A stretch of 64,000 nucleotides of DNA from contig JAOZFT010000004.1 of NCBI GenBank assembly GCA_027492035.1, positions 32,001-96,000 of the forward strand. The letters are read 5' to 3'. Positions 30,998-54,043 of the stretch are shown piece after piece. Each line of letters starts with the position of its first letter. Positions within the stretch are counted from its first letter, which is position 1. The stretch comes from Thermoproteota archaeon. Lineage in GTDB: Archaea; Korarchaeota; JAOZGF01; JAOZFZ01. The translations under genes were made by a program, and so were the position numbers. The notes below the pieces were generated by a model that saw only the letters and a list, made by a program, of their open reading frames with translations, had not been told where the DNA came from and did no database searches.

Positions 30998-33849
30998 TTT
31001 TTAAACCTTAACATTACCACTCGCGAAAGGCCATCTTTCATTGTTACACCCACTAGCTGGTCAGCTTCAGCTAAAGTTTCCTTTTTAAGTGAAGCTAAAA
31101 TGAACTGGGTTTTTCTTGATTCCTCCTTTAACAACTTAGCGAATTTTTTACAGTTTAAAACATCCAAGGAGGAGTCAACTTCATCAAAAACATAGAAGGG
31201 AGATGGTTTAAATTTCTGGATAGCAAGTATGAAAGCTAAAGCCGTCAACGTTTTTTCTCCACCTGACAAAGCATCTATGTTAACTATTTTCTTTTCTGGA
31301 AGTTTAACTTCAATCACTAAACCGCTCTCTATTTCGTTTTCGTCCTCAAGCCTAAGTTTACCTTCTCCACCTGTTAGTTTATTAAAGACAAAGTTAAAGT
31401 TTGCAGAAACTTTTTCTAAAGTTTTTTTAAACACTTCCTTCTTTTTCTTTTCAATTTTATTAATTAAATCAAGTATTCTCTCCCTCTCCTCCAATACTTT
31501 TTGATACTTACTCTCTAAGTCATCTAATTCTTTTTTGAAAGAAAAATATTCCTCTTCAGCTTTGAAATTTAATTTCCCAAGCTGAGCAATCAATTTTTCA
31601 AGTTTTTCGATTTCCATCTTAGCCTTGTTTTCGTCTATGTCACCGAAAAGGTCTAGTCTTAAGCCTTTACTTTTCACTTCCTTCTTTAATCCTTCAAGTT
31701 CTGAATTTACTACAGCGAAGTTTATTTTTAGTTGCTCAAGTTGTTTTTTGCTCCATATGCTCTCCCTGAAAAAGCGGTCTTCTTCTTCCCTTAACTTTTT
31801 TAGATGCTCCTTAAGTTTTTTCCTTTTACTTCGCAATTCTTCAAAATTCATCCATTGATTTCCCATTTCAAGTAGTTTTTTATTTAATTCATTTATCTCC
31901 TTTTCTAGTTTAAGGTTTTCTTTTTCAAAGCGTTTTATTTCGTCTTCAACCTTAGTTCCTTTTTGGAAAACTGTTTTTTTAGCGTAGCCCCCAAAAACTA
32001 CACCATCTTTCTCAACTAAGTTACCGTTTAAATCCACTACCCGGTATTTCCCTATTTCACTTCTCCTTAATTTACGTATATCCTTTACAAGTAAGGTTCC
32101 CCCGAACACGTAATCAATTACTTTTCTGAATTTTTCGTCGTATTGAATGAAATCCTTTATTAAACCTAAACTTCTACTTTGCGGAGGTGGAGGTTTTTTT
32201 GTTTTGACGGTGTCTAATGGTATAAACCTTGCCCTTCCCACCTTTCCCTTTGTTAATATTTCTATACATTTCTTAGCTGTTTCAAAAGTATCAACCACTA
32301 TTAAGTTTAGTTTGGAACTTACCGATGACTCAATTGCTCTTTCATAGCCTTGTTTAGGTTTTATTAACTCGGAAAGTAAACCGTAAACCCCAGGTAGATT
32401 CTTGAGATGAATTGCTGCTTTTGGTTTAAATTTATCCAGGAGAGTGTTTAGTCTTTTAATTTCAGCTTCGTTAGCTTTCAGTTGAGCTTTTTTTACTTTT
32501 AAATTACTTTTTAAGTTTTCGTAACGTATAGATTCTGTTTCTTCAATTAATTTTTTCTCAATTCTTTCTATATCAGCCGTTTTCTCCCTTATTTCTTCCC
32601 TTATTTTGACTAATTCTTCATCATAATTTATTTTAGTGTAGTTTTTTATTTGGTTCTCTATTGAAGCCTTTTTCTCGTTTAAGCTTCTGAAACGGGAAAC
32701 TAAGATACTGTCTTCCAAGTGCTTCCTTCTTTCCTCTAGTTCAAAGTACTTCTTCATTTTTTCTATTTCTTTCTCTAAATTTTCAACTATTCTCCTTTTC
32801 TCGTCAATTATTATTTTTATTTCTTGGAGTTTTTGAAGAGTTTCCTCTAGCTTCTTTAAAGCTCTCTCTTTCTTTTCTTCATATTCACCTATGCCGCTTA
32901 TTTCGTCTATTATTCCTCTCCTTTCTACAGGTTTCATTTTAACAATTTTTGTTACGTCACCTTGTAACACAATGTTATGACCACTTGGTTGGAGACCATA
33001 CCTAGCTAACATGTCCATAACAACTGTCCTGGTTGCTCTTTCCCCGTTTAACCTGTAAACACTCTGTCCTTTATTTGAAATCTCTCTTGAGATTTCGATC
33101 TCTTCCCCTTCCCCCTTGAGCTTTAAAGAAACTTTAGCTTTCTTTTTTTTCAGTTTATTGCAAATTAATTGGGTTAAGTTTTCAGCTCTTAGGTTTTTGG
33201 AGCTTCTAACCCCTAATGTGAAGTTTATTGCTTCAATAATGTTTGAGTTGTGGATAAAAATGTTGTTACCTACAAAATTGTGTGTAAAGGGAATGAATAA
33301 ATCATAAACTTTCCCCTTCTCTTGGAAATAATTTATTTTCTTAATTATGTCAATTCCCAGTTTGTCACTTTTTTCCACATAAGAAAGTATTTTTATTCCT
33401 TCTTCCAAGCTTCTTGCTTCTAAAAACTTGAAGATGTTGTTTTGAATAACTAGAATGGGATGGTCAGAAGTTGTCTCTATTTTTCTCCCTTTAATTGTTT
33501 CTATTTCCAGTATTTCTCCGTTGTTCATTTTTTCTACGAAAAAAGACAATTTACTTTTGCAAAGGGAGCTGGTGGCTGGGTTAAAAGTAAGAATTTTGTA
33601 AGGGGATTCCTTCCAGTAGTAGAAAAAGCCTTCAGGTGAAGGTTTTCTTTCACCTTTCTTCTTTGCTTCATCCACTATTTTCTTTATTTCAAGTGGTTCA
33701 TTGTCTACTAACTGAATCAAAGTGTCCCCTTTTACACATTTCCCGCTTCCGTTAGGTCCAGTTATAGCATTAAAACCTGTTGAGAAGGGGATCTTAGCTC
33801 TTTTAAAGGATTTGAAATTTCTGAGGGTTATTGATTCAATTTTCAACAA
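30994..33849 (-). CDS. smc: chromosome segregation ATPase SMC (short-armed), intein-containing precursor
   Basis: NFKSF, Walker A GPNGSGK|SN split by an insert, Q-loop LQGDV, hinge GVYGLLSELI..GRARFIPLD..GGY, signature LSGGEK, Walker B FDEVDSSLD. Confidence 0.93.
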   Translation of the reverse strand: MLKIESITLRNFKSFKRAKIPFSTGFNAITGPNGSGKCVKGDTLIQLVDNEPLEIKKIVDEAKKKGERKPSPEGFFYYWKESPYKILTFNPATSSLCKSKLSFFVEKMNNGEILEIETIKGRKIETTSDHPILVIQNNIFKFLEARSLEEGIKILSYVEKSDKLGIDIIKKINYFQEKGKVYDLFIPFTHNFVGNNIFIHNSNIIEAINFTLGVRSSKNLRAENLTQLICNKLKKKKAKVSLKLKGEGEEIEISREISNKGQSVYRLNGERATRTVVMDMLARYGLQPSGHNIVLQGDVTKIVKMKPVERRGIIDEISGIGEYEEKKERALKKLEETLQKLQEIKIIIDEKRRIVENLEKEIEKMKKYFELEERRKHLEDSILVSRFRSLNEKKASIENQIKNYTKINYDEELVKIREEIREKTADIERIEKKLIEETESIRYENLKSNLKVKKAQLKANEAEIKRLNTLLDKFKPKAAIHLKNLPGVYGLLSELIKPKQGYERAIESSVSSKLNLIVVDTFETAKKCIEILTKGKVGRARFIPLDTVKTKKPPPPQSRSLGLIKDFIQYDEKFRKVIDYVFGGTLLVKDIRKLRRSEIGKYRVVDLNGNLVEKDGVVFGGYAKKTVFQKGTKVEDEIKRFEKENLKLEKEINELNKKLLEMGNQWMNFEELRSKRKKLKEHLKKLREEEDRFFRESIWSKKQLEQLKINFAVVNSELEGLKKEVKSKGLRLDLFGDIDENKAKMEIEKLEKLIAQLGKLNFKAEEEYFSFKKELDDLESKYQKVLEERERILDLINKIEKKKKEVFKKTLEKVSANFNFVFNKLTGGEGKLRLEDENEIESGLVIEVKLPEKKIVNIDALSGGEKTLTALAFILAIQKFKPSPFYVFDEVDSSLDVLNCKKFAKLLKEESRKTQFILASLKKETLAEADQLVGVTMKDGLSRVVMLRFKK
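33247..33738 (-). mobile_element. mini-intein (164 aa, no homing endonuclease) in SMC Walker A
   Basis: Block A CVKGDTLI, block B TTSDHPIL, block F VYDL..PFTHNF, block G IHN followed by Ser(+1); excision restores GPNGSGKSNI. Confidence 0.93.
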
Positions 33850-36717: not shown

Positions 36718-37582
36718 AAATATGGATAAAGTAGTAATAAAGTTAGTTGAATTAACTAAGATTTATGAAGTAGGAGTACCTGTGAAAGCTTTAGATAACG
36801 TAAATCTGGAGATAAGGAATGGTGAATTCGTTTCAATAGTGGGGCCTTCAGGTTCAGGAAAATCAACGCTTTTAAACATGATAGGTTGTATGGATAAACC
36901 TACTTACGGCAAAGTTTACGTAGATGAAGTTGATGTTACACAGTTGAAGGAAAAGGACTTAGTTAAGTTAAGGGCTGAGAAGATAGGTTTCGTTTTTCAA
37001 ATGTTTAATTTAATCTCTACCTTAACTGCTTTAGAAAACGTTCAACTACCCATGCTTTTTTTAGGCAAAGGATATAAGGAGTCTTTAGAAAGAGCTGCTT
37101 TGTTGCTTAGATTAGTTGGTTTATGGGATAGAATGAACCACAGGCCTCTCCAGTTAAGCGGTGGACAAAGGCAGAGAGTAGCCATAGCCAGAGCTTTAGC
37201 TAACGACCCTCCCATAATTCTAGCCGACGAACCAACCGGTAACTTGGACAGCAAAACCGGTCAAGAAATCATTGAAATTATGCGGGAAATAAATGAAGTG
37301 ACAAATAAAACATTTGTAATTGTTACCCATGACTTGGAGGTGGCTGAAAAAACCGACAGAATAATTTTCTTGAAGGATGGAAAAGTAATTACGGAGAAAG
37401 GTAAGATTGAAGAGAAGAAAAGTTCTATTGAAAAACTTTTGGGAGAGTTGGAGAAACTGAAGAGGGAACTGCTTCTTCTCAACATAATGAAGGAAAGCTT
37501 AGATGCTGAAACCTATAATTGGAAAAGGACGGAGATTTCGGAGAAGATAATGCAAATTGAGGAAGAGGTGGAGAGAAGGTGA
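36710..37582 (+). CDS. ABC transporter ATP-binding protein (LolD/MacB type) with C-terminal coiled-coil extension
   Basis: [37 protein letters not shown]. Confidence 0.94.
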
Positions 37583-39855
37583 AAAGAAAACTAACATTAG
37601 TTTTAACGCTTACAGCGCTGGTTATTATCTCTCAATATTTACATATTCAGATTTCTTTTTCAAGTGAAGAACCACGCGAAGGCCCCGAAATATCAGTTAA
37701 TAAGGATGTGAAGTATGAGCTAAGTGTCAGTTTTACAGGTAAGAAAGCAGCATTTACAGAGGACGTCCAGTTAACAATTTTTAACAGGGGAAGAGAAACT
37801 CAAAAAATAAATTTGACAGATAGGGTTTTCCAAGGAAAAATTGAAACTTTAACATTTAAAGAGGGACCTAGAAACAGTTTTTCGGAGAAAATAGGTGATG
37901 TTCTTTACCTGGAATGGATAAATCTTGAAGTGAAACCGCATTCAACAACCGTGATACATTACGAAATCGACACGGATTTCGCATTAATTAATGCAAAAGT
38001 AACTTTTTTAGTAAATGGGGAAAAATCTAAAGTTATTCATGTTTCAGGTGACCGGTACCTGTTTGTTAACAGGTCTGACAATTTGTCGCTTTTAATCAAT
38101 TTAAGTAATGAGTTGCCTGTGTGGGTGAATGAAGTAAAGTACTACCCCTTCCAAATTCTTTTATCTGTAAATATACCTGAGGATTACTTTATGTACGTCA
38201 AAGCAGATCCTGAACCTACTTTATCAAGTTCTTTAATGGGGGTAGAGGTTAAAACTTGGAGTTTTACCCTATCAAACAGTTCTGAAAAAATTAAACTTAA
38301 TCTTAGAGCGAAAAGAAACGCTTCTTTAGGCTTTGTAGAAGTAGACCCGATTAGAGTGGTGGTTTTACCTCAACCTAAAGAAACCATTCAAATGCTTGAG
38401 AATTCACGGGAGAATATGCAGAAATCCATAGATCAACTTAACAACATGAGCAAATATTTAAGTAATTTCAGCAATGTTTTAGATGCTGAAACTAAGCTTT
38501 TAAATGCTTCACTGCGTTACATGAATTTTGTTTCTAATTCCCTCAGGAATTTATCTGGTGGGACAAGGAATATTTCTTCAGCTCTAAACTTAACAAGTAA
38601 AGGATTAAAGAACCTTTCCAACCTGGTTGGTGACACAGTTACTAGACTGAGGGTTTCTACCAGCTCTATACCTTCAAATCCACCTTTCCTTCTCCACGTA
38701 TCTGAGATTCCAGCTTTACCTCCAAATTTCCCAATACCTATAAACTCTTCTTTATTAAACAAATTAAAGGAAATGTTTTCGGAGGTAACTCAGGAAGTTG
38801 TGGATAAAGTGAACTCATTTATTACCAATATTTGGTCCAGTTTTATTTCACAAGTTGTAACTCCGTTGAGGAGACTAGTTCTGGAGCTCGAGTTTCTAAA
38901 GAAACAATTGAACTATGTTTCTGACTCCGTTTCTTTATTAACAAATGCAACAGGCAACGTTTCCACTGCTTTAAAACTACTTTCAAACCAAACAATGAAT
39001 ATACATGATTTAATCAATGAATCCTATCAAGTGACTCTGCATTCAAAAAAGGCTGTAGATAAAATGGTGGACGAAATAAATTCTCAAATTTCTAATTTAA
39101 CGAGGAAGAAAAAAGACCTTGAGAACGAAATAAAACTTTTAGCCATGAATACTCCCTTAAACATGCCTGTTTCAATTGTTTCCGTTAAAAATGGAGGAAT
39201 CCATTTCTCAATTAAAAAAATCGGCGACAAAAACTGGGAAGTAAGGGATTTGCAATTAGGCGAAGCTTTAGGGCTTAATTTAACTTGTGTCTCAATCTGT
39301 TTTGATGAAACGTCGGAAGTAAAAACTTTTGTGCAGGGAGAGGGAGGTGAATTTGTGGAAGTTAACCCCACTTCCTTAAACATGTATGTAGGAAATGGAA
39401 CCATAACCTTTTTACCCTATAACTCTGATGCAGGAAACGAGAGACCCTTTTTAAAAAGTTTAACAGGTTCAGAAATTAGGATAAGGATAAAGTCAAAGGA
39501 AAAACCTAAAGTGAAAGCGGTGCTGGATCTAGTAAACAGTTCTTGGTTAAGTTTTGAAGAGAATAATGAATATGTAGTATATGTTCGGTTGCCGAAAATC
39601 TCCTATGGTTTCATTCCGAAAAGTTTAGAAACACCCAACTTCAACTTAACTCAGGAAAGAGAGAAAGTTTCAGGTTTTAAGTTTGAAAGATGGATGTGGA
39701 TTCCCTTACTTACTATTCCATTGATAGCAACAACGCTTTTGATATTAAGAGAGAAGCCTCCTAAAGTTGTTGTCACTGATAAATTAATTTCAAAGGTTGA
39801 CGAATTAGAAAAGAAACTGAAAAGTTTAAGGAACAGCCGAAAACCTGTTAAATAG
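37579..39855 (+). CDS. large membrane-anchored surface glycoprotein with long helical hairpin
   Basis: Signal peptide, beta-rich N-domain, long heptad region split by a Pro-rich segment, second beta-rich domain, TM WMWIPLLTIPLIATTLLIL; about 20 N-x-S/T sequons; GTGA overlap with the ABC ATPase gene. Confidence 0.7.
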   Translation: MKRKLTLVLTLTALVIISQYLHIQISFSSEEPREGPEISVNKDVKYELSVSFTGKKAAFTEDVQLTIFNRGRETQKINLTDRVFQGKIETLTFKEGPRNSFSEKIGDVLYLEWINLEVKPHSTTVIHYEIDTDFALINAKVTFLVNGEKSKVIHVSGDRYLFVNRSDNLSLLINLSNELPVWVNEVKYYPFQILLSVNIPEDYFMYVKADPEPTLSSSLMGVEVKTWSFTLSNSSEKIKLNLRAKRNASLGFVEVDPIRVVVLPQPKETIQMLENSRENMQKSIDQLNNMSKYLSNFSNVLDAETKLLNASLRYMNFVSNSLRNLSGGTRNISSALNLTSKGLKNLSNLVGDTVTRLRVSTSSIPSNPPFLLHVSEIPALPPNFPIPINSSLLNKLKEMFSEVTQEVVDKVNSFITNIWSSFISQVVTPLRRLVLELEFLKKQLNYVSDSVSLLTNATGNVSTALKLLSNQTMNIHDLINESYQVTLHSKKAVDKMVDEINSQISNLTRKKKDLENEIKLLAMNTPLNMPVSIVSVKNGGIHFSIKKIGDKNWEVRDLQLGEALGLNLTCVSICFDETSEVKTFVQGEGGEFVEVNPTSLNMYVGNGTITFLPYNSDAGNERPFLKSLTGSEIRIRIKSKEKPKVKAVLDLVNSSWLSFEENNEYVVYVRLPKISYGFIPKSLETPNFNLTQEREKVSGFKFERWMWIPLLTIPLIATTLLILREKPPKVVVTDKLISKVDELEKKLKSLRNSRKPVK

Positions 39856-40882
39856 GTTTTAGGAAATCGCCTTTATAGCCTAAAACCATATGCAAATACT
39901 TAGCGTCCTCTTTTAAGTCTTCAATTTCTTCTATGTCCCCTCTCACCTTCACCTTTTCACCTTTTTTAACATGTTCAGTAAACCTGCCTCTAAAACTTGT
40001 TAATTCCTTTATTTTCTCTAAGCCAGGGAGGTTACTAATTGGTTTGACGTTGCCGACCACGTATTTGCACGGTGTAAAAATGGAGTCCTTATCTTCCCAT
40101 ATTTCACAAGTTATGGTTCCTTTACCTATGAAACGAAACTTTAACTCTCCATATTTGTACCTGATTTCACTCCTTTTTTTCACAAGCCTGACAAAATAGT
40201 CTTTATCCTTTATTTTGCCGTGAAGAATTTTCTTGGCTTCAATTTTTCTTAGGTGCATATTTGAAACTGCTTTTTCACCCCATCTAAAGGACACTATCCT
40301 TTTAACTGTTTCCAAATTATAAGGCTTAATTTCTCCTTCATTCCTCATTTCCTTCAGTGCAGAGTAAACTTTTCTACTTTCCCTTTCACCATAAACAACT
40401 AAATCTATGTCTGAATCCTTTGTTTCTAAACCCACCAAAACAGAACCGGAGACCCCTATGGAGGAAAAGAAACCCCTTCTTTCATTAAGTTCCCCCACAA
40501 ATTCACAAATTAAAGTTTCCAGTTCACTTTTCCTCTTTTTTAAAGTAAGCTCCTTGATTTTTTCTACTGGGTTATAAATTTCCTTTATTTCACTCAAAGG
40601 AACACTTTGAATCAGTTTACTCATTACTGGGTCAAAATAAAGATATTTTGGGTATTTCTTCCTTAAAAGATTGAAGCTTTCATTTAGGTCGTAAACTCTC
40701 AAATATTTCCTCTTCCCTCTTCTCCTATTTCCTTTACTTGAAGGAACATAACATAAAAAAGCTGTTACCCTATTTGGTGGATGGACTCCTCCTTTAACAT
40801 GGAAAAGTAATCCTTCATTTGTTTCAAGATAAAACCCCTCATTTAATTCAGGGAATTCCATTTTTAGCCACATCCTTTTCAA
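39848..40882 (-). CDS. COG1665-type nucleotidyltransferase (pol-beta fold + C-terminal OB-like domain), paralog 1
   Basis: HPPNRVTAFLCYVP; GVSGSVLVG..SDIDLVVYG; SFRGRF..GEKVKVRG.IE. Confidence 0.8.
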   Translation of the reverse strand: MKRMWLKMEFPELNEGFYLETNEGLLFHVKGGVHPPNRVTAFLCYVPSSKGNRRRGKRKYLRVYDLNESFNLLRKKYPKYLYFDPVMSKLIQSVPLSEIKEIYNPVEKIKELTLKKRKSELETLICEFVGELNERRGFFSSIGVSGSVLVGLETKDSDIDLVVYGERESRKVYSALKEMRNEGEIKPYNLETVKRIVSFRWGEKAVSNMHLRKIEAKKILHGKIKDKDYFVRLVKKRSEIRYKYGELKFRFIGKGTITCEIWEDKDSIFTPCKYVVGNVKPISNLPGLEKIKELTSFRGRFTEHVKKGEKVKVRGDIEEIEDLKEDAKYLHMVLGYKGDFLKPI

Positions 40883-40924
40883 AGAAACCTGGATAGAAGG
40901 GTTTGAAAAGGTTTAAAGGATGCA

Positions 40925-41335
40925 TTAATGAAAAAAAAGTATACTATCAGCTAATTTAACCCCTTTCACTGTTTCAAGTTCTTTAAACAATTTCTTTATC
41001 TTCCTTCCTTCCCCTAAACAAATAATTGTTTCTAAACAGTCCTCTTCTAAATGAATATGAGTGGAACTCATGACAATGTCATGGAAAAGATGCTGTTTCT
41101 CAGTTATCTCTTCTTGGCAACCATGTTTCTCATGGTCATAAATCAAACTTATTACTCCAATATTAGCTTCTTCTTTTTCAAAAGTTTTATGTTTATTTAT
41201 TAGTAATCTTATAGCAGCTCTTATTGCTTCAGACCTATTAGCAAAACCTGTTTCATCAATGAAAGAGTCAAGCTCTTTCAAAAGACTGTTAGGCAAACTA
41301 ACACCGAACCTAACAATTTCTTTTTGAGGCATCAA
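40925..41335 (-). CDS. nikR: nickel-responsive regulator NikR
   Basis: RHH RFGVSLP..LL..LD...NRSEAIR; YDH; Ni ligands QH and HIH..DCLE. Confidence 0.92.
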   Translation of the reverse strand: MMPQKEIVRFGVSLPNSLLKELDSFIDETGFANRSEAIRAAIRLLINKHKTFEKEEANIGVISLIYDHEKHGCQEEITEKQHLFHDIVMSSTHIHLEEDCLETIICLGEGRKIKKLFKELETVKGVKLADSILFFH

Positions 41336-41412
41336 AATTCTTCCTCACATTTTAAGGAACTCTTCCGTGGAGGTGTCTTATGAAAACATGCTATGTTTTT
41401 AAACTTAAAAAA

Positions 41413-42477
41413 CTATTCTTCAATTTCTTTTATATATTCATCTTCTCTGAAGGCGCTGGAACCGATTACTACCCTGAAATACTCTCCATTACCTTTAACT
41501 TGCATAACTTTTTCAAGTTCACCTTTAACTTCTATCCTGTCCCCCTTTCCTGCAATATCCATGAATAAACCTTCGTAAGAAACTACCTCTTTTATTTTTC
41601 CAGGTTGCAGATTTCCATTGAACAATGAAACCTCACTTATTTTGTAAATGGAGGGAAGGAAAACAGCTTCAGATGAATCTTCAACTGTAGCTTTCAGGAT
41701 TACTTGCTTAATTGGAAGGTAAAGTTTGTCACCGTATTTTTCCTTTATTTCTTCATCTTTCCTTACTGGATGGATAGAGAAATAAGTGTTTTGGTAGAAG
41801 CCGTAGTTCCACCTTCCCTTTCCAATGTGATAGAGTTCTTTGTAGCCCAAGGTTTGAAAAAGAGACATCCTTTTCTCAACCCATTCCTTCAACTTTTCTT
41901 TAGTTAAAGGTTTCAACTGAGCTTCTTTACATTCCAAAATTTCTTTAAGGACTTCCTTAACCCTAAAAGAGTTTCTAGAGCCGTAAACAATTAAATCTAT
42001 ATCTGAAAATTTTGGGTTATGGATTCCAAGCAATATCGAACCTGTTACTCCGAAATTATTTATTTCTACACCGCTTAAATCAGAAATTTCTTTAACAAGG
42101 CTTACTGTTTTCCTTTCCAGTGTATCGATTTTTCTTCGGTTTAAAAGTTTTTTAAGTTTTTCTTCAGGCTTATAATATTTTTTAATCCTTTCCTTTGGTA
42201 CAAAAGAGAAAAACATGTTTCTAACTGGACATTTCGAAACATAAAGGGGGTAGTTGTTTTTTAGGAAATCAATGGTTTTCTTAACTTCAACTGCATGGTA
42301 GTGGGTAAGTTTTCTTTTATAACTTACTCCCTTCCCCCTCCATTCCCCATCTTTGGCTGGTGTGTACTTTAGATAGGCAGTGTACTTGTTTTTTGGATGT
42401 AAATAACCTGTTACACAGAAAAACATGTCCTCCCTTGTTTTTATGAAGTCACGGTCTTTAGGTTTTCTTATTTTCAT
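41413..42477 (-). CDS. COG1665-type nucleotidyltransferase, paralog 2
   Basis: DRDFI..FFCVTGYLHP...AYLKYTP; GVTGSILLG..SDIDLIVYG; SYEGLF..GDRIEVKGELE. Confidence 0.82.
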   Translation of the reverse strand: MKIRKPKDRDFIKTREDMFFCVTGYLHPKNKYTAYLKYTPAKDGEWRGKGVSYKRKLTHYHAVEVKKTIDFLKNNYPLYVSKCPVRNMFFSFVPKERIKKYYKPEEKLKKLLNRRKIDTLERKTVSLVKEISDLSGVEINNFGVTGSILLGIHNPKFSDIDLIVYGSRNSFRVKEVLKEILECKEAQLKPLTKEKLKEWVEKRMSLFQTLGYKELYHIGKGRWNYGFYQNTYFSIHPVRKDEEIKEKYGDKLYLPIKQVILKATVEDSSEAVFLPSIYKISEVSLFNGNLQPGKIKEVVSYEGLFMDIAGKGDRIEVKGELEKVMQVKGNGEYFRVVIGSSAFREDEYIKEIEE

Positions 42478-43502
42478 TTCTTCACCGTTTTAACAAATTC
42501 CTCTTTCAAACCTGAACCTATAATTACCCTATACCTACCTGAGCTTGACTTTTCAAGCATTCCTTTAACTATAACCACTTCACCTCTTTTCAAGTAGCTC
42601 CTATACAAGCCGATCATAGAGACTATTTCTTCCACTGTAACATTAGGAGTTCTCCCCTCTAAAAAACATTTTTTTACCTTGTAAATTACTGGCCTGAACA
42701 TCGACTCCGCAGTGTCAGCAACTTCACAAGTTACTGTTACAGGATGTAAAGGTTTCCATTCCTCTTCATTTCTTATTTCATTTATTAGCCTTGTAGCGTT
42801 TAAAACAAACCTTTTTCCATTGTAGAATCCGGTATTCATTCTCCTTTCCTCCACTTCATTCTTTCTTGAAATTTCCAAAACTTCTCTTTTCTCTAGCACC
42901 TGTAAAGTTTTAATTACTTTTTCATAGTTTCTGGAGCCGTAAACAGCTACATCTATATCACTTTGCTCACTATGCATGCCTAAACTTATTGAGCCATGGA
43001 TGCCGAAAAAATCAATTTTCACTTTTGAGTAAAACGAGAGGAGATGAATCAAATTTAATGCTTTTTTTTCCAGTTCATCCTTCATTCTCTTACTTAAAAG
43101 TTTTTTTAAGCATTCATTTGGGCGGTATACCTCCTTTATTTTGTCACGTAAGGGAGCAATCAACCATTTCTTCAGGTTCAAGTCATAAAAAACGTAACCT
43201 GGGAAATGACTCTTCAAGGACTTTATTATTTGCGAGTAATTTTCTGGAGAGTAAAGTAAAGCTGGCCTAACCATTTCTACACTTTTAAAAAACCATTTTT
43301 GACTAAGCCATTTAAGTTTGAAGTTGTAAGCCAGTTTTGAAGGGATGTATTTGAGGAAGCTTATTACCCTGTTCCAGGGATGTTTATAGCCGAAAGTGTA
43401 AAATATAAAATTGTCCTTTGAAACTATGACATCACCATCCCTGAAAATTCCATTTCCCGGCGTGTAAGGTTTTCTATTTTTCATTCCCTCCCCTTCTTTC
43501 AT
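42474..43502 (-). CDS. COG1665-type nucleotidyltransferase, paralog 3
   Basis: RDGD..IFYTFGYKHP..VISFLKYIP; GIHGSISLG..SDIDVAVYG; SMIGLY..GEVVIVKGMLE. Confidence 0.82.
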   Translation of the reverse strand: MKEGEGMKNRKPYTPGNGIFRDGDVIVSKDNFIFYTFGYKHPWNRVISFLKYIPSKLAYNFKLKWLSQKWFFKSVEMVRPALLYSPENYSQIIKSLKSHFPGYVFYDLNLKKWLIAPLRDKIKEVYRPNECLKKLLSKRMKDELEKKALNLIHLLSFYSKVKIDFFGIHGSISLGMHSEQSDIDVAVYGSRNYEKVIKTLQVLEKREVLEISRKNEVEERRMNTGFYNGKRFVLNATRLINEIRNEEEWKPLHPVTVTCEVADTAESMFRPVIYKVKKCFLEGRTPNVTVEEIVSMIGLYRSYLKRGEVVIVKGMLEKSSSGRYRVIIGSGLKEEFVKTVKK

Positions 43503-43517
43503 GCTTCCCTTTCTCTG

Positions 43518-44672
43518 TTAAATGGCTTCAGTGATTCTTTTAGCTTTCCTCTTTAAATTTTGAAACACTTTTAAATAGTTTTTATGAGTGTCTACAACGC
43601 TGCAAACAGGCTCTCCTTTTTTAACCTCTGTATTCGGGGGAGAAAGATCTTTCACAAAACTGTAAAGTTTAAGGTTTGGCACCTTCCCTTTCCTGGGCGA
43701 AAAAACAACTCCTCTCCCGCTGAATTTTTTAGCTTTAAATTTTTTCTTCGGTAATTCTCCGTTACAGGCTTGCAAATGTAACTGAGTTAAGTTTATTTCG
43801 TATGCCCTTTCAATACACCCTATGCTTCCTTGAAACCTGGGGTTGACTTCAACAAGGTAAGGGATTCCTTTCTTTAGAATAAAATCTATTCCGTTTGATC
43901 CGACGAGGCTGAATTCATTCGTTAAAGCATCAACAATTACCTCAATTTGTTTTTTGGTTTCAGGTTTAACTTTGTACGGTGAAATATTGCCGCAGAAAGT
44001 GAAATCCCCAGGCGAATTTAACCATTTCTCCCCTATTAATTGCCTGTTTATTGAAACTAGAAAGGCTTCTTCTCGGTTTGAAAGAAAGGATGCGCTTGCA
44101 TCCACCCCTTCCACATACTTCTGCACTAGAACTTCCCCCTTAACAGCAGGGATGTCGTCTTCTGTTAAAATAAGTTTTTTCCCTTTACCGCCACTTCCGA
44201 ATGGGGCCTTTAAAACTAAGGGGGGTTTCATTTCGTTTAAGATATTTAAAACTTCATCGTAGCCTTTAACAATTTCTGTTTCTGGGAAGTTAATCCCTCT
44301 CTCCTCCAGAAAACTGAAAAATTTTCTCCAATTCCTCACATTCCTCACCGAATCAGCACCGTTTCCCTTCAAAGGGAAAATTTTACTTATTTCCTTCCAG
44401 AAAAAGGGGAAATCGTCGAAACCAGAGGTTACCAGACAAAAATCAATCTCTTCAGTTTCCTTCAGTTTCCTCAGTTCCTGTAGACATCTCTTGATTCCAG
44501 TTTTAATGTCCTCAAGCTGAAACCAAGGGATTTTAATTGTTTTAACCGTCTTATCAACTACATCTAAATCTTTCCAATAGGTTACACAGTATATTTCATG
44601 GTTTAAATTTTTCAGCGATTCTACAACCCCCCTTACGTTATAGCCAACTACCAATACTTTCAAAGGAACCAC
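43518..44672 (-). CDS. ATP-grasp domain protein (COG2232-like, C1-cofactor-associated family)
   Basis: LKAPFGSGG, VQKYVEG..ASASF, FTFCGN..P, LVGSNGIDF, EVNPRFQGS, GEPVCSV. Confidence 0.85.
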   Translation of the reverse strand: MVPLKVLVVGYNVRGVVESLKNLNHEIYCVTYWKDLDVVDKTVKTIKIPWFQLEDIKTGIKRCLQELRKLKETEEIDFCLVTSGFDDFPFFWKEISKIFPLKGNGADSVRNVRNWRKFFSFLEERGINFPETEIVKGYDEVLNILNEMKPPLVLKAPFGSGGKGKKLILTEDDIPAVKGEVLVQKYVEGVDASASFLSNREEAFLVSINRQLIGEKWLNSPGDFTFCGNISPYKVKPETKKQIEVIVDALTNEFSLVGSNGIDFILKKGIPYLVEVNPRFQGSIGCIERAYEINLTQLHLQACNGELPKKKFKAKKFSGRGVVFSPRKGKVPNLKLYSFVKDLSPPNTEVKKGEPVCSVVDTHKNYLKVFQNLKRKAKRITEAI

Positions 44673-44885
44673 TTCTTTGTAAAATTTATTTTGTTTTACC
44701 TATTTAAAGGGGGAAATTAGAAACGAAACAAGAGAAAATTTGAGAACAGGCACTTCGCATAACAGAAACTTTTTTATTTTCCCTTTTCAAAGTTTTAAAA
44801 GAAGTATAAAAGTTTAAAAATAAACTTTAACTATTTCGCCTTCCTTTCTTCTTCTTGCAAAAGGAGAATAAATTTTAAAGTAGAG

Positions 44886-44903
44886 GAAAAAAGTTTATAT
44901 AAA
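44886..44903 (+). promoter_or_regulatory. BRE-TATA promoter of the Fe-S/AOR/cooC/mtmCB operon
   Basis: GAAAAAAG followed by TTTATATAAA about 45 nt upstream of ATG 44946. Confidence 0.55.
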
Positions 44904-44945
44904 TCATTTATAAATTCTTGGAAGGATTGGTCCTGGTGCTGTAAA

Positions 44946-45380
44946 ATGCCTATTAAAATCAGGGTAGATCATCCAGATAGATGTATGGGCTGCTATAACT
45001 GTGTTTTTGCCTGCAGCCGAGAACTGTACGGAGTGATTTCTAAAAGATTTTCTGCAATTCAGGTGCACGATTCAAAAACTTCAAATACGTTTCTCATAAG
45101 GGTTTGTGTCGGCTGCACCGACCCTGACTGCGCCAACGCCTGCCCCTACGAAGCATTGAAACCTCGGCCGGAAGGAGGAGTTGAACTTGTCAACCCTGAC
45201 AAATGTAAAAAATGTGAAGATAGACCCTGCATACCAGCATGTCCAGTGAATGCTTTACCATGGGACCCTATCAATAAGAAACCCATAATTTGCACAGAGT
45301 GCGGTGAATGTGCCAAATACTGTCCACATGAAGTTATTTTTTACGGAGAAGTGATTGAAGCTACACCGTCTCCGATTTAA
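44946..45380 (+). CDS. multi-[4Fe-4S] electron-transfer subunit (AOR partner)
   Basis: CMGCYNCVFAC, CVGC..PDCANACP, CKKC..PCIPACP, CTECGECAKYCP. Confidence 0.9.
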   Translation: MPIKIRVDHPDRCMGCYNCVFACSRELYGVISKRFSAIQVHDSKTSNTFLIRVCVGCTDPDCANACPYEALKPRPEGGVELVNPDKCKKCEDRPCIPACPVNALPWDPINKKPIICTECGECAKYCPHEVIFYGEVIEATPSPI

Positions 45381-45396
45381 AAGGAAGGGAGAAAAA

Positions 45397-47148
45397 GTGG
45401 AGAAAGTACTTTTTATAGATCTAACTGAAAGGAAAGTTTGGAGTGAAGAGAAGGGGGAATTGTTTAAAAAATTCCTAGGAGGATCAGGAGTTGCAATAAA
45501 TTTGCTTCATGAACTTTGCCCTGAAAAAGAGGATCCTTTCTCACCTGAGAACCCGATAATTTTCGCTGTAGGGCCCCTGTTAGGGGTTTACCCATCTTGC
45601 ACAAAAACAATAGCAATGTTTAAATCTCCTTTAACAGGGAATTTAGGTGAATCACACGCAGGAGGCAGGTTCGGTACAGCTTTAAGATGTGCTGGCTACG
45701 GCGCAGTAGTTATAAAGGGAGTTTCAGCAGAACCTGTTTACTTAGATATTTACGACAATGACAAGGTGTTGTTTAAAAGAGCCGCTTCCTTCCTTGGGCT
45801 TCCACCCAGAAGAATAATAGATTATCTGAAAAGAGAGGATGTGCTGGGTTTAGAGAGTGTAATTGCAACAGGGTTAGCAAGTGAAAAATTTGTCGCGTTC
45901 GCAGGGGTAATAGTTGATAAACACTTCTATTTTGGAAGATTAGGTTTAGGTACAATTTTTGGAGCAAAGAATTTGAAAGCCATAAGAATAACTTCTGACG
46001 GTAAGATTCCGATAAAAAACGTAGATGAATACAAGATTTTGTATGATGAAATTTATGAGAAGATAGTTAAAACGGATGCTATGGCTAAATACCATAACTT
46101 AGGAACTCCTCAAAATGTTCATTCTTTAAATGAAATAAGAGGCCTTCCAACAAGAAACTTTCTTTCAGGATATTTTGAAGAAGCTGAAACCATTTCAGGA
46201 GAATATTTTGCAGATAACATTTTGTTACGTAAAATGCCATGCTCCCACTGCCCAATAGGATGCAAACATGTGGCACTGGTTAAGGAACAATTTGCTGCAC
46301 AACATGAGCTAGAAGTTCTTGAACTTCCATACGACTATGAACCAATTTATTCACTTGGTTCAAACCTTGGAGTAAGTGACACAGTAGGGGTGCTTAAGCT
46401 TATTTCAACCTGTGACCTTTATGGCTTGGACGCCATGATAACAGGCAACTTACTTGCGTGGGTTACTGAAGCATTCATGAGAAATTTAGTGACTGAAAAA
46501 GAAACCTTGGGACTGAAACCTAAATGGGGTTATTACGAAACCTACATAAAAATGATTGAAAACATAGTTAAAATGCCTAACTCTTTCTATGCGAGTCTTG
46601 CAATGGGTAAAGTGCCTGTGAAGGAGGGAGAAAGTTTCTACATGACAATTGGCGGTAACGGAGTAGCAGGTTACCACACAGGCCTAGCCCAAGTTTTAGG
46701 TACAGCCATTGGCGCTAGACACTCCCACGTAAGCAACGCAGGATACTCTTTAGACCAAAAGTACTTAGGAAAAGAATTACCACCCGAAGAAATAGTTGAT
46801 ACATTAATAACTGAAGAACAGAAGAGATGCATACTTGAATCATGTGGAGTGTGTCTATTCGCGAGAAGAGTTTATGATTTAGAACTTATTTCGAAAGCTT
46901 TAAATCCTTTAGGCTGGAATTACTCAGCAGATGAACTCAGAGAAATCGGTAAAGAGATTTATAGGCTGAAGTTTAAGTTTAAGTTCAGGGAAGGGTTCCA
47001 ATTTGAAACTTTGCACATCCCAGAAAGGTTCTTTGAAACCCCCTCAGCTAATGGCTTAATAAGTAAAAAGAAATTCTTTAAAGCATTAAATTACGCAGCG
47101 AAAAGGATAAAGGAACTAGCTGAAATTCCAGTGGTTGAAAAGAAATGA
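45397..47148 (+). CDS. aor: aldehyde:ferredoxin oxidoreductase family (W/Mo-pterin)
   Basis: FLGGSG, KSPLTG..GESHAGG, GRLGLG.IFGAKNLKAI, LPTRNF, CSHCPIGC, DYEP, CDLYGLD, CGVCLF; start re-assigned to GTG 45397. Confidence 0.92.
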   Translation: MEKVLFIDLTERKVWSEEKGELFKKFLGGSGVAINLLHELCPEKEDPFSPENPIIFAVGPLLGVYPSCTKTIAMFKSPLTGNLGESHAGGRFGTALRCAGYGAVVIKGVSAEPVYLDIYDNDKVLFKRAASFLGLPPRRIIDYLKREDVLGLESVIATGLASEKFVAFAGVIVDKHFYFGRLGLGTIFGAKNLKAIRITSDGKIPIKNVDEYKILYDEIYEKIVKTDAMAKYHNLGTPQNVHSLNEIRGLPTRNFLSGYFEEAETISGEYFADNILLRKMPCSHCPIGCKHVALVKEQFAAQHELEVLELPYDYEPIYSLGSNLGVSDTVGVLKLISTCDLYGLDAMITGNLLAWVTEAFMRNLVTEKETLGLKPKWGYYETYIKMIENIVKMPNSFYASLAMGKVPVKEGESFYMTIGGNGVAGYHTGLAQVLGTAIGARHSHVSNAGYSLDQKYLGKELPPEEIVDTLITEEQKRCILESCGVCLFARRVYDLELISKALNPLGWNYSADELREIGKEIYRLKFKFKFREGFQFETLHIPERFFETPSANGLISKKKFFKALNYAAKRIKELAEIPVVEKK

Positions 47149-47942
47149 AAATTTGTATTTCCGGGAAAGGGGGTACAGGAAAAACAACTCTTGCAGGGAC
47201 TCTTTCACGCTTGTTCGGGAGGGATGGTTATAAAGTTTTAGCAATAGACGCTGACCCAAACACTACACTAGCTTCAGCACTGGGCATACCGCCTGAAACA
47301 GCTGAAAAAATAATACCTATTTCCGAAAATAAGGAATTAATCAAGGAAAGAACAGGCACCCAACCAGGAAGTTCATGGGGTGTTTTCTTCAACCTTGTAC
47401 CTGATGTAAGAGATATAAAGGATAAGTTCAGTATTCAAGCACCCGACTCAGTATCTTTACTAGTGACTGGAACAATTGAATTCGGTGGAGGAGGCTGCTT
47501 CTGCCCAGCAGCTGCTTTACTGAAAACCCTCCTTAGTTATCTTATAGTGAGGGAGAAGGATGTGGTAATTGTTGACATGGAAGCAGGGCTAGAGCACTTG
47601 GGACGGGGAGTAACAAAAGAATTTGATGTCCTTTTAATCGTAGTAGAACCCAGCCTCAAATCCTTAGAAACAGCCGAGAAGATAAGAAAATTAGCTGAAG
47701 ATTTATCAATAAAGGAAGTATTTGTTGTCCCTAATAAGGTCTCCACTAAAGAACAATCAAGAAGAATCAAGGAGTATCTTTCTAACAAGGGATTTGAAGA
47801 AATAGGGGAAATACCTTATGACACAAACGTGATTGAAGCAGACATGGTTGGTAAAGCTTTACTTGATTACAACCCAAACTCTAAAGCAGTGAAAGCAATA
47901 AAGAAAATTTACCAAGGACTTGTTAAACTAAATCAACATTAA
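47145..47942 (+). CDS. cooC: CooC/AcsF nickel-insertion ATPase
   Basis: GKGGTGKTT, IDADP, GGGCFCP Ni-binding motif, DMEAGLEHLGRG. Confidence 0.92.
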   Translation: MKICISGKGGTGKTTLAGTLSRLFGRDGYKVLAIDADPNTTLASALGIPPETAEKIIPISENKELIKERTGTQPGSSWGVFFNLVPDVRDIKDKFSIQAPDSVSLLVTGTIEFGGGGCFCPAAALLKTLLSYLIVREKDVVIVDMEAGLEHLGRGVTKEFDVLLIVVEPSLKSLETAEKIRKLAEDLSIKEVFVVPNKVSTKEQSRRIKEYLSNKGFEEIGEIPYDTNVIEADMVGKALLDYNPNSKAVKAIKKIYQGLVKLNQH

Positions 47943-47979
47943 AAATCCCTAATCCATAAAAAATTGGAGGAGGGGCTTA

Positions 47980-48657
47980 GTGCCACCTGACTTGCTGACA
48001 GAAATAAAGGAAGCATTAATTTTTGGGAAATACGATACAGTAGAGAAAAAGGTAAATGAAGCATTGAAAAAGAAAGTTCCACCAATGAAAATCCTAAATG
48101 AAGCCTTAATTGAAGGAATGAAAGAAGTCGGGAGGAAATGGATTGATGGCGAAGTTTTTCTAGCCGACGTAATGATGTCAGCTGAAGCAATGAGGAAGGG
48201 AATGAATTTAATTGAGCCATTAATTTCTAAACCAGGAAAGGAAAGGAAGATTAAGGGCAAAGTGTTAATTGCAACCATTTATACCGACATCCATGACATA
48301 GGGAAGAAAATAGTTGCAGCTTTACTGCAAGCTGAGGGGTACGAAGTAATTGATTTAGGAGTTGATGTCCCACCTTCAAAAATAATTGAGGAGGCTTTAA
48401 AGAACAAAGTGGATTTAATTGGTGTTTCATGCCTCTTAACAACCTCTATTCTCTACATAAAAGACTTAATTGACTTCCTTTCCACAAGGAAGCTGAGGAA
48501 TAAATTTATTGTTGCAGTTGGAGGAGCTGCTTTAACAAAAGATAAATCTGAGGAGATAGGGGCTGATCTCTACGCCGAAACAGCGGAGGAAGCAATTAAA
48601 GAAATAAATGAAAAAATTAAAGAGTTTAAAGCAAGAGGTAAGGAGGGAAATGATTGA
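47980..48657 (+). CDS. methyltransferase cognate corrinoid protein (MtmC/MtbC-like)
   Basis: Cap domain (GMKEVG...GEVFLADV), B12 motif DIHDIG...DLGVDVP...SCLLT...VGGA. Confidence 0.92.
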   Translation: MPPDLLTEIKEALIFGKYDTVEKKVNEALKKKVPPMKILNEALIEGMKEVGRKWIDGEVFLADVMMSAEAMRKGMNLIEPLISKPGKERKIKGKVLIATIYTDIHDIGKKIVAALLQAEGYEVIDLGVDVPPSKIIEEALKNKVDLIGVSCLLTTSILYIKDLIDFLSTRKLRNKFIVAVGGAALTKDKSEEIGADLYAETAEEAIKEINEKIKEFKARGKEGND

Positions 48658-50014
48658 CCCCTGGGAGATTATAGGAAGGGGGGAGGAGGGACCCCACATA
48701 CCTGAAAAAGAATTTGACATGAACCTTTTCAAAAAACTAGCTTCTTTAGAGAAAGAGTACGAAATAAAATTCAACGGAGAGCCCCTCCTTCAGGATAAAC
48801 AAATGATAAACTCAATTTATGAAGCAGGTTTAGAGTTAGCTGTAGAAACAGGTTTCTATTTGCTTGACACACAAAGGAGAATTCTTTTCACAGAGGATGA
48901 AATAAAGTATTATTTATCTAAATCCAAGAAAAAACTAGTTTTAGGCGAAGGGAAAGAAGCTGAAGAATTGGTGAAAAGGGAAATCAATGACAAGAAACCT
49001 CCTTTGTTAATAGCAGGAATGGCTGGAACCCCTTTACCGGAAAGGGATTTCTTTATTAAAAGCGCCATGTCATACGTTAAAGAAGAGGTGGTGAAGGGTT
49101 TAGATCATGGCTCAATAACATCAGTTGAAGGGAGAGAAGTAAGAACTGGAAGTCCTTTAGAAATTCATGCAACTAGAAGAGAGATAACTTGGTTAAGGGA
49201 GGCTTTGCAGAGGGTAGGTAGACCTGGTTTACATTTACTAGACGGGGAATCAAGCATAACTTCAAAGGGAGTTTTATCTGTGCTTTCACCAAACTATTTA
49301 AGAAAAACAGACGCATACTTTGTGCCGGTGCTAAATGAAATGAAGACAGATTACGTTAGGTTAAGTAAAGCATTAGCTGGAACAGAATACGGTTGTTTAA
49401 TTGCGAGCTTGGTTGACCCAATTCTTGGAGGATACTCAAGAGGCCCAGAAGGAACAGCTATTTGTTCAATTGCAGAGTTAATACTGAGCAAAATAATTTA
49501 TCAAGCCAACTATTTTCTCCTACATCCCTCAGATATAAGGGTGAAGTCAACAACCACACCTCAGTGTACATGGGTCCTAGGTGCAGTAGGGCAAGCAATA
49601 AGTAAGAACACAGACCTTCTTGTTTTTGCAGATGTTTGGGTTACTTCAGGAGCAGGCACCGAAACTGTTTTCCAAGAAATAGTTCCTAACACCTTAGTGG
49701 CTACCTACTCTTCACTGCATTTATTGGGGCCTGTTACCGCTTGCGGTTTATTACCTAACGGTACAGGTCTTGAGGCAAGATACATGGGGGAAATAGCTGA
49801 AACAACAGCAAAGAAACAGCTTAAACCGGAGATAATTAACGAAGTAGCTTCCCGTTACTTAAATCTCTACATTAACAAGTTATCTTCACCAGATTTAGGA
49901 ATTAGTTTTAAAGGTCTTTACAACATGGAGAAAGTGACACCGAGAAAAGAGTATCTGAACACCTTTGTCGCTAACTTTGAAAAGTTTAAGAAAGAAATAG
50001 GTATCCACGATTAA
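48650..50014 (+). CDS. monomethylamine:corrinoid methyltransferase (MtmB) homolog without pyrrolysine
   Basis: GP..PEKEFD, YEIKF, IYEAGLEL..ETGFY..DTQR...FTEDEI, GSPLE, GRPG, NEMK.DY, GGY..GPEG, GLEAR..GE; no in-frame TAG; start re-assigned to ATG 48650. Confidence 0.85.
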   Translation: MIDPWEIIGRGEEGPHIPEKEFDMNLFKKLASLEKEYEIKFNGEPLLQDKQMINSIYEAGLELAVETGFYLLDTQRRILFTEDEIKYYLSKSKKKLVLGEGKEAEELVKREINDKKPPLLIAGMAGTPLPERDFFIKSAMSYVKEEVVKGLDHGSITSVEGREVRTGSPLEIHATRREITWLREALQRVGRPGLHLLDGESSITSKGVLSVLSPNYLRKTDAYFVPVLNEMKTDYVRLSKALAGTEYGCLIASLVDPILGGYSRGPEGTAICSIAELILSKIIYQANYFLLHPSDIRVKSTTTPQCTWVLGAVGQAISKNTDLLVFADVWVTSGAGTETVFQEIVPNTLVATYSSLHLLGPVTACGLLPNGTGLEARYMGEIAETTAKKQLKPEIINEVASRYLNLYINKLSSPDLGISFKGLYNMEKVTPRKEYLNTFVANFEKFKKEIGIHD

Positions 50015-51422: not shown

Positions 51423-51433
51423 ATTTGCCGCCT

Positions 51434-52456: not shown

Positions 52457-52633
52457 AAAATTACTTGGGTGAACAGAAACCTCTTTTTCAAATAAGTTTT
52501 TCCCTTAAAACAGTTTATTTGTCTCCTTCTAGAGGTGCAAAGTTCCCTTAGGAAAGGAAACGTGACTTCAAGGATGGGGTTAACACTGGATAATTTCTTT
52601 TGTGAGAGAAAAAATGTAGGTGTTAGGAAAAAA

Positions 52634-54028: not shown

Positions 54029-54043
54029 GTTGCGTCACCTTTT

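Follow-up and report, generated by a model that had tools for sequence, protein, structure and literature searches.

What three diverged nucleotidyltransferases (NTases) do beside an ATP-grasp ligase and a nickel-responsive regulator is the question raised by a run of five genes in a 64,000-nucleotide stretch of DNA, hereafter the window, from a Thermoproteota archaeon of the GTDB lineage Korarchaeota (assembly GCA_027492035.1, contig JAOZFT010000004.1, positions 32,001 to 96,000). The first-pass annotation of the window had listed the co-directional order ATP-grasp, NTase3, NTase2, nikR, NTase1, and this order is borne out by the following minus-strand open reading frames (ORFs; lengths in amino acids, aa), of which those of NTase2 and NTase3 share 4 bp:

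43518..44672, minus strand: ATP-grasp ligase (ATP-grasp_3 type), leading gene of the run, 384 aa (PF02655, 1.2e-31, 110.4 bits)
42474..43502, minus strand: NTase3, subfamily C, 342 aa (PF18765, 1e-6; PF01909, 3e-5)
41413..42477, minus strand: NTase2, subfamily B, 354 aa (PF01909, 3.4e-6)
40925..41335, minus strand: NikR-type nickel-responsive regulator, 136 aa (PF01402, RHH_1, 3.1e-8; PF08753, NikR_C, 5e-24)
39848..40882, minus strand: NTase1, subfamily A, 344 aa (PF01909, 3.1e-7)

Methanopterin carries one-carbon (C1) units in methanogenesis, anaerobic methane oxidation, the archaeal Wood-Ljungdahl pathway and bacterial methylotrophy, and a link of the NTase family to the methanopterin- or methanofuran-type C1 metabolism is well supported and may be regarded as quite probable. 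The connection with C1-cofactor genes, suspected in the first-pass annotation, is sustained by the gene neighbourhoods in 80 genome loci, the operon position in a sister genus, the co-occurrence with Mch and a fusion to HPPK. The reading favoured here, that the family builds or tailors the side chain of a methanopterin-type (possibly methanofuran-type) C1 cofactor, is a tentative one and falls somewhat short of probable; it is in keeping with the neighbouring genes, with the co-occurrence and with the fusion to HPPK.

The neighbourhoods were surveyed in the 80 loci: every ORF lying no more than 4 kb from a family member was clustered, and the clusters were named via Pfam and NCBIfam. It was found that the commonest neighbour is a CitG-like gene (PF01874; 26 loci, median gap of 46 bp), the second commonest being an ECF-S-like membrane protein (18 loci), often located directly upstream of subfamily A. 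These are followed by FwdD (14 loci), an unnamed 166-aa protein and an MptN-like RimK ligase (12 each), Ftr (11), FwdA (9), CofE-like and MobA-like proteins (8 each), Mch and FwdC (7 each), LarC, MfnB, MfnE-like and MfnF-like (TIGR03123) proteins (6 each), LarB, a DmrX-like flavoprotein, DUF1464, Mer and MobB (5 each), an MptH-like dihydropteroate-synthase-like protein (4), Mtd (3), and LarE, NikR and FdhD (2 each). At least one gene of the C1-pathway or cofactor-synthesis type is present in 49 of the loci, several of the other 31 being short contigs, and among the recurrent neighbours no RNA-processing genes, no conserved small carrier-protein gene and no CofD-like partner were encountered.

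The arrangement in the relatives of the source organism is consistent with this picture. In the sister-genus genome G001, of the same family as the window's genome, the co-directional order is mtd-mch-fwdD-fwdB-fwdA-ftr-fwdC-mptN-like-NTase B-ATP-grasp, and the A, D and C copies lie on another contig, with C overlapping D; in G002, of the same order as the window's genome, MptD and FwdB come after NTases A and B without a change of strand. In the relatives, therefore, the paralogs are linked both to ATP-grasp and to C1 genes. The window's genome (G000) holds RFAP synthase beside a CitG-like gene, an MptH-like gene, MfnB, CODH/ACS and the mtd-mch-fwd-ftr-fwdC-mptN operon (L093), which ends without NTase and ATP-grasp; since the block stands at the operon tail in G001 and is missing from that of L093, it was apparently relocated from the end of the C1 operon to its site next to AOR and CODH/ACS, the latter at 50-60 kb of the window. 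The region L089:7904-10632 (G000:C20), in which a DUF447 protein and RFAP synthase, overlapping on the plus strand, face the CitG-like gene on the minus strand, may be described from its gene content as a compact methanopterin-synthesis spot without an NTase. In five loci of a Bathyarchaeota-labelled group (L066, L068, L072, L079 and L082), a C-D-A NTase block is situated between an ECF-S-like/CitG-like pair and MobB with cell-division genes of the CdvA/CdvB/Vps4 type.

Known ATP-grasp ligases of these pathways are MptN and MfnD, which add glutamate in methanopterin and methanofuran synthesis, respectively. The ligase of the cluster resembles them in being an ATP-grasp enzyme that matches both weakly and in part, and in the sister genus its ortholog (L090:10370-11545; 44% identical over the full length, E 1e-110) follows an MptN-like gene and a B-type NTase; it differs in lying far below both NCBIfam equivalog cut-offs (37.9 bits against 400 for MfnD, 25.8 bits against 350 for MptN). 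By these curated cut-offs it is neither MfnD nor MptN and is best assigned to a separate ATP-grasp_3 subfamily. As a neighbour in the 80 loci, ATP-grasp is represented by weak phmmer matches (22-51 bits) and one clustered homolog (L020), so that the conserved NTase/ATP-grasp link is seen in the sister genus only. Past the ATP-grasp gene of the sister genus (L090:11596-12946, G001:C86) lie a 342-aa ORF, an overlapping 111-aa ORF and then an MBL-fold hydrolase; neither of the two ORFs matched Pfam, NCBIfam or the NTase profile, and no counterpart of them was seen in the window.

The phyletic pattern shows that the NTase family closely follows the methanopterin-type C1 pathway. The phylum of the window is represented by 43 species genomes, 41 of which were searched with both NTase2 and Mch queries, and the family was found in 13 of them, all with a high-scoring Mch (E 1e-79 or better); among the 28 non-carriers, 26 have no Mch and 2 have a divergent Mch-like match only. 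Likewise, Ftr is present in 11 of the 13 carriers, a CitG-like gene in 10, RFAP synthase over its cut-off in 6 and MfnB in 5, against none of the 28 non-carriers in each case. Mch is likewise present in each of five carriers from other lineages. In a second class, sampled as 151 genomes at least 85% complete and centred on the genome of L009, 118 genomes have the family and 122 have Mch, with both in 109, the family only in 9, Mch only in 13 and neither in 20. In the sections of PMC5020050 considered here, Ignisphaera, Thermoproteales, Bathyarchaeota and Thorarchaeota are named among the holders of tetrahydromethanopterin (H4MPT) and methanofuran (MF) genes, a list that matches the range of the NTase family.

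A gene fusion adds to this. In the protein P0245 (505 aa), a single sequence found on two contigs, an HPPK domain of the bacterial type is fused to an A-type NTase. The pterin diphosphate used for condensation with an arylamine in folate and methanopterin synthesis is the product of HPPK, so that a role connected with a pterin cofactor is directly supported by the fusion.

The family belongs to the Pol-beta nucleotidyltransferase superfamily on the evidence of motif, profile and fold. PF01909 covers only the middle of each window NTase (31.1, 27.8 and 24.7 bits against a cut-off of 21); in a Pfam scan at E up to 1 it is matched by 99 of 107 family members and PF22600 by 33 of them, while NCBIfam holds no family for the window NTases. 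The catalytic GS...DxD motif is present in all three, as had been noted in the first-pass annotation, whereas the spacing given there, x(9-10), has to be corrected to GS-x(10-11)-DxD; the N-terminal H-P-x-N...L-x-Y-x-P pattern is found as described. In NTase2 numbering, G146, S147, D159 and D161 are invariant in the 107 sequences and in all four subfamilies, the full set of invariant residues being His27 of the N-terminal domain, Gly143, Gly146, Ser147, Asp159 and Asp161 of the catalytic domain, and Glu322 of the OB domain, a distribution from which it may be supposed that one active site is built from all three domains. An AlphaFold2 model of NTase2, computed with an alignment of 107 relatives, reached a pLDDT of 95.9 and a pTM of 0.93, and the OB-like character of the C-terminal domain, claimed earlier, is backed by it (Z 8-8.9 to OB folds). 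The N-terminal 115 residues, folded alone with a pLDDT of 93.2, look like a small beta-barrel in the model.

The extent of the family was assessed with a profile from four paralogs searched against 1.84 billion proteins, which matched 461 cluster representatives at E up to 1e-30; relaxing the threshold to 1e-10 raised the number to 1047. The named relatives are mostly labelled Bathyarchaeota, Thermoproteota and Nitrososphaerota, with a few from Anaerolineae, Methylomirabilis and Asgard-type sources, and many carry the JGI label 'predicted nucleotidyltransferase'; the ESM Atlas returned only unnamed clusters of the family itself. No paper on the family was found in a literature search whose scope left subscription journals largely outside, and the sections of PMC8305020, PMC3087415 and PMC5020050 considered do not mention it.

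The window NTases are paralogs with pairwise identities of 30% (E 2e-43), 25% (E 5e-25) and 32% (E 2e-44), and a fourth paralog is located on a separate contig of the same genome (G000:C14:10015-10989), flanked by the unrelated genes of a YjeF-type repair enzyme, a beta-CASP nuclease-like protein and a Fumble-type kinase. Groups A-D were defined from a FastTree tree of 127 full-length members from the 80 genome loci and the window: A, with NTase1, 46 rows and support 100; B, with NTase2, 64 rows and 96; C, with NTase3, 9 rows and 99; and D, with the fourth copy, 8 rows and 100. An IQ-TREE run under a mixture model, made as a consistency check on 66 of the 127 rows and five from the nearest genomes, recovered the same four groups, each set apart from the rest by a single branch (A 99, B 94, C 99, D 100). 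Thus, of the old triplication proposed at first, the ancient multiplication stands (four clades at 94-100 support in both trees, the conserved subfamilies that were to be looked for, and 25-32% identity), and the number of three gives way to four because of the copy on the other contig.

The copies derive, by their sequences, from an ancient split into four old, well-supported subfamilies, all with a predicted intact catalytic site. The H, GS, SDxD and OB-domain Glu positions are conserved in 45/45 rows of A, 62-65/65 of B, 7-9/9 of C (the gaps being truncated ORFs) and 8/8 of D, and the H-P, G..GS, SDxD, YG and G..E positions in 42-45/45 of A, 48-65/65 of B (the lowest being a Ser/Thr/Cys position), 5-9/9 of C and 7-8/8 of D. 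In subfamily A all 18 checked positions are conserved, in 42-45 of 45 rows each, and A and B each have their own nearly invariant residue set. Since the catalytic residues are kept in all copies throughout A-D, there is no sign of a decayed copy or of the relaxed selection that might have undone the first-pass proposal, and the genes appear to be under selection.

Subfamilies were assigned to the loci by the best match to the four window paralogs. One gene copy is present in 40 loci, two in 32, three in 6 and four in 2, and the loci labelled Thermoprotei, Methanomethylicia, Culexarchaeum and Nezhaarchaeota mostly have B alone, B being the subfamily with a single copy in Thermoprotei-labelled genomes. 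A is followed co-directionally by B in 17 loci, with a gap of at most 4 bp in 11 and an overlap in 8, while the two are convergent in 6 loci and divergent in 3; C is followed co-directionally by D in 6 loci, overlapping in 4. The window order (C-B, NikR, A, with D elsewhere) is a rearranged version of this A-B/C-D pairing. A heteromeric complex, as proposed in the first-pass annotation, would be one reading of the gene overlaps; a score of 0.00 for A+B (NTase1 with NTase2, each as a subfamily alignment), computed without control runs, speaks neither for nor against it.

As to what the family might do in cofactor synthesis, the methanopterin molecule terminates in ribitol-(alpha)-ribose 5-phosphate-2-hydroxyglutarate, and no enzymes, to our knowledge, have been assigned for decades to the late steps of tetrahydromethanopterin synthesis, in which the ribose 5-phosphate and the hydroxyglutarate are attached. 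A precedent for such chemistry is offered by the pairs CitG/CitX and MdcB/MdcG. CitG-type enzymes move the 5-triphosphoribosyl part of ATP to a hydroxyl, and CitX or MdcG join it to another hydroxyl with the loss of pyrophosphate; CitX and MdcG presumably belong to the nucleotidyltransferase fold class. The likeness to the present case is that a CitG-family gene is the commonest neighbour, that its partner NTase carries the G-S...DxD signature, and that the two steps together would yield the terminal part of the methanopterin side chain, an alpha-ribosyl 5-phosphate joined to a hydroxy acid. Of the conceivable reactions, the making of a phosphodiester is considered the likeliest for the family. 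Worded as a scheme, the CitG-like enzyme would attach a 5-triphosphoribosyl group to the precursor at its ribitol end, the NTase would join its alpha-phosphate to a hydroxy acid (e.g., 2-hydroxyglutarate) with release of pyrophosphate, as CitX/MdcG do after CitG/MdcB, and ATP-grasp ligases (the cluster's own, or MptN-like ones elsewhere) would add amide-linked acids. This specific CitX-like step of the NTase family is possible but doubtful. The differences are that no sequence relation to CitX/MdcG is detectable, that the architecture is an N-terminal barrel, an NTase domain and an OB domain, that the acceptor of CitX/MdcG is a protein serine whereas that of the family would be a small hydroxy acid, and that three carriers have no CitG.

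The same outcome would be reached by a CofC-like NTP (nucleoside triphosphate) activation of ribose 5-phosphate. CofC and CofD of coenzyme F420 synthesis solve the same problem, a phosphodiester in a C1/redox cofactor made via NTP activation, and CofE-like and MobA-like neighbours occur near the family in 8 loci each; CofC is a MobA-like Rossmann-type transferase, however, of a fold unlike that of the NTase family, and no CofD-like gene recurs among the neighbours. A 'sequential nucleotidylation and ligation', as the first-pass annotation phrased it, may be supposed for the cluster. The presence of up to four paralogs might reflect different acceptors, different cofactors (methanofuran genes are neighbours as well) or A/B and C/D pairs. 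One may speculate, with considerable reserve, that A-D are a toolkit of phosphodiester-forming transferases, perhaps the two-subunit enzymes A/B and C/D, which would make, together with the CitG-like and ATP-grasp enzymes, the ribosyl-phosphate-hydroxyacid end of methanopterin, and that the paralog number would correspond to a side-chain structure so far undescribed in these archaea, which are not methanogens. A bolder variant can also be put forward, in which the B subfamily stands in for the half of LarC that uses cytidine triphosphate (CTP) and so would tie nickel-pincer chemistry to C1-cofactor synthesis. A conserved family, catalytically intact by its residues, that travels with methanopterin genes provides concrete proteins to express and assay, and from its four fixed subfamilies one may suspect a greater variety of cofactor tails in uncultured archaea than has been recognised.

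Several points weigh against the side-chain proposal. Published labelling work reportedly pointed to phosphoribosyl pyrophosphate (PRPP), not ATP, as the ribosyl donor. CitX/MdcG are absent among the 25 most frequent of the 54 Pfam families matched by the 107 members (E up to 1), with none found for the window proteins; the nearest solved folds are RNA/DNA enzymes and nucleic-acid-binding OB folds; and the CitG-like gene of the window's genome is found on a different contig from the cluster. In three genomes (G022, G027 and G035) A+B directly follow fwd-mch and no CitG-like gene was found, so that a strict CitG partnership fails there. Mch is present in 13 of the 33 genomes without the family in the second class and missing from 9 of the 118 with it, and all these counts are descriptive, since related genomes are not independent, by which the association is overstated, and metagenome-assembled genomes are incomplete. 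In five carriers at least 90% complete (G020, G022, G025, G026 and G027), RFAP synthase and the MptH-like protein are under the cut-off or absent and there is no MptD. Thus, the family persists where the known early pathway goes undetected, and its distribution agrees more closely with that of Mch, which stands for use of the cofactor, than with that of any one biosynthesis gene. Such carriers either have early enzymes of an unknown kind or import a precursor, with the family acting late or in salvage.

The latter option leads to an alternative in which the NTases process an imported cofactor or precursor, e.g., by re-attaching or swapping a phosphodiester-linked tail, a salvage or re-tailoring role that we consider improbable. 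It would account for the five nearly complete carriers just named, which have Mch and no detectable RFAP synthase, MptH-like protein or MptD, and for the ECF-S-like protein, a putative substrate-capture type, right upstream of A in many of its 18 loci. The Pfam match of that protein, however, is below the cut-off (28.7 against 30.7 bits), the window's genome and its two nearest relatives hold RFAP synthase and MfnB, and de novo pterin chemistry is suggested both by the HPPK fusion and by the MptD gene near the NTases of G002.

Less likely again is a nickel-cofactor role, in which the NTases act with LarB/LarC/LarE on a nickel-pincer-type nucleotide or serve as the NTP module of a LarC-like insertase, and by which the NikR of the cluster would be explained. 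LarC, LarB and LarE (6, 5 and 2 loci) adjoin the family in several lineages, the locus L007 having the order citG-NTaseA-larE-larB-larC-NTaseB, and NikR lies inside the window cluster and beside the A-B pairs of L023 and L044. In the fusion protein P0269 (674 aa), the first 235 of 375 LarC profile positions are joined to a B-type NTase, which we take to occupy the place of the CTP-binding C-terminal part of LarC; its 90%-identity cluster contains 22 sequences from several sources, Anaerolineae where labelled. That is a single such cluster, perhaps from a single event, while LarC itself does not track the family (7 of the 13 carriers against 8 of the 28 non-carriers), two ordinary LarA-type genes in the window's genome explain its Lar genes, and the NikR adjacency is rare and explained by the nickel enzymes CODH/ACS nearby. 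Because LarC does not track the family and the genome has those LarA-type genes, the LarC fusion, the LarB/C/E neighbours and NikR are treated here as a second, weaker thread towards nickel, unexplained and apart from the main function.

The regulator itself, with an RHH domain and a C-terminal nickel-binding domain, scores over the NCBIfam cut-off for NikR (NF003381, 119.7 bits against 105) and is predicted to be a regular NikR. The first-pass annotation had listed it with the cluster; that it is a part of the system is not supported, as a NikR homolog adjoins the NTases in only 2 of the 80 other loci (L023 and L044); it is most likely a passenger serving the nearby nickel enzymes. Two sequence features precede its gene:

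41383-41399, minus strand: perfect 17-bp palindrome AAAACATAGCATGTTTT, between the NTase2 stop and nikR
41396-41403, minus strand: TATA-like TTTAAAAA, overlapping the palindrome

The palindrome may be a candidate site of NikR autoregulation. A search for a wider operator set turned up two further copies of the core of AAAACATAGCATGTTTT in the genome, each of them within an ORF, and no regulon could be drawn from them.

It has also to be considered whether the family is an RNA enzyme, a template-independent 3'-end nucleotidyltransferase or one acting in tRNA modification or in repair, that stands near C1 genes by chance. Residues ~115-240 of the NTase2 model resemble terminal uridylyl-/poly(A)-type transferases and PolX (TUT7, CutA, GLD-2, PAPD1; Z 6.9-8.7, 81-100 residues aligned), with the best matches 8oef (Z 8.7; root-mean-square deviation, rmsd, 2.6; 85 aligned), 6ywn (Z 8.0) and 3au2 (Z 8.0) at a level that is middling or common by the scale of the tool. 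Residues ~252-354 align with OB folds of the SSB, RPA, MCM-N and AspRS types (Z 7-8.9; top matches 4me3, Z 8.9, 3ulp, Z 8.2, and 1kaw, Z 8.0, with rmsd 2.4-2.8 and 79-84 aligned), and Foldseek gave a probability of 0.97-0.99 to SSB chains with weak E-values; in its search against the PDB neither the full model nor the N-domain model had a match at E up to 0.001. For the N-domain model no match at Z of at least 5 was obtained among 48,161 chains, the faint likeness to Sm/KOW-type barrels (best Lsm5, an Sm-like barrel, Z 4.8) being below the meaningful level, and sequence searches against solved structures with the three NTases and the 107-sequence profile gave chance-level matches only. The catalytic-domain fold is thus common to the family and to the Pol-beta RNA nucleotidyltransferases and PolX, whereas the PAP-associated or RNA-binding domains of those enzymes are missing from the family, whose genomic context is cofactor metabolism. 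RNA as a substrate, one of the first-pass suggestions, is not supported, as the fold resemblance alone speaks for it: the co-occurrence with Mch (13 of 13 carriers against 2 of 28 non-carriers), the C1 operon position and the HPPK fusion would not be predicted, and no RNA-processing genes recur nearby, so that this explanation is given very little credence. A TiaS-like tRNA-modifying enzyme was considered for its OB fold; no TiaS-type family appeared in general Pfam scans of the window proteins and the 107 members.

The least probable is a protein nucleotidylylation, in which the NTases would modify or mature a C1-pathway protein, such as a formylmethanofuran dehydrogenase subunit, in the manner of CitX or GlnE, since, although Fwd subunits and molybdopterin-maturation genes (MobA-like 8, MobB 5, FdhD 2 loci) recur and CitX and MdcG have a protein serine as their acceptor, the family is not accompanied by any conserved gene of a small carrier protein and the biosynthesis-type neighbours and the HPPK fusion better fit a small-molecule role.

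Around the run, further features of the window were recorded:

44673..44945, no strand: divergent intergenic region of 273 bp, common to the ATP-grasp run and the ferredoxin-AOR run
44701-44708, minus strand: TATA-like TTTAAATA, read from the sequence 28 nt ahead of the GTG start of ATP-grasp
44946-50014, plus strand: ferredoxin, AOR, CooC/ParA-like P-loop ATPase, corrinoid protein and MtmB-family methyltransferase (by Pfam)

The upstream region that the cluster was said to have in common with the AOR-methyltransferase run is thus this divergent gap, to which, with its TATA-like TTTAAATA, a promoter role may be ascribed. Neither sequencing runs nor RNA runs are listed with the cluster.

The MtmB-family methyltransferase (468 aa; Pfam MtmB, 8e-93; no NCBIfam equivalog) is read without an in-frame stop and is a non-pyrrolysine member, and therefore its substrate is probably one other than monomethylamine. 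Two consecutive pairs of ACS gamma-/delta-type subunit genes (cdhE/cdhD-like) lie at 50052-55234 on the minus strand, the second pair being shorter and more divergent. On the other side, the end of NTase1 is overlapped by 8 bp, convergently, by the end of a plus-strand ORF (37579-39855), which encodes a protein of 758 aa whose N-terminus is signal-like, with long coiled stretches rich in Asn, Ser and Leu and a C-terminal membrane anchor; it matches no Pfam family and is preceded by a MacB/FtsX-type ABC transporter pair. At 30994-33849 on the minus strand, an SMC-type chromosome segregation ATPase of 951 aa contains an intein N-terminal splicing region at residues 38-134, just past the P-loop region.

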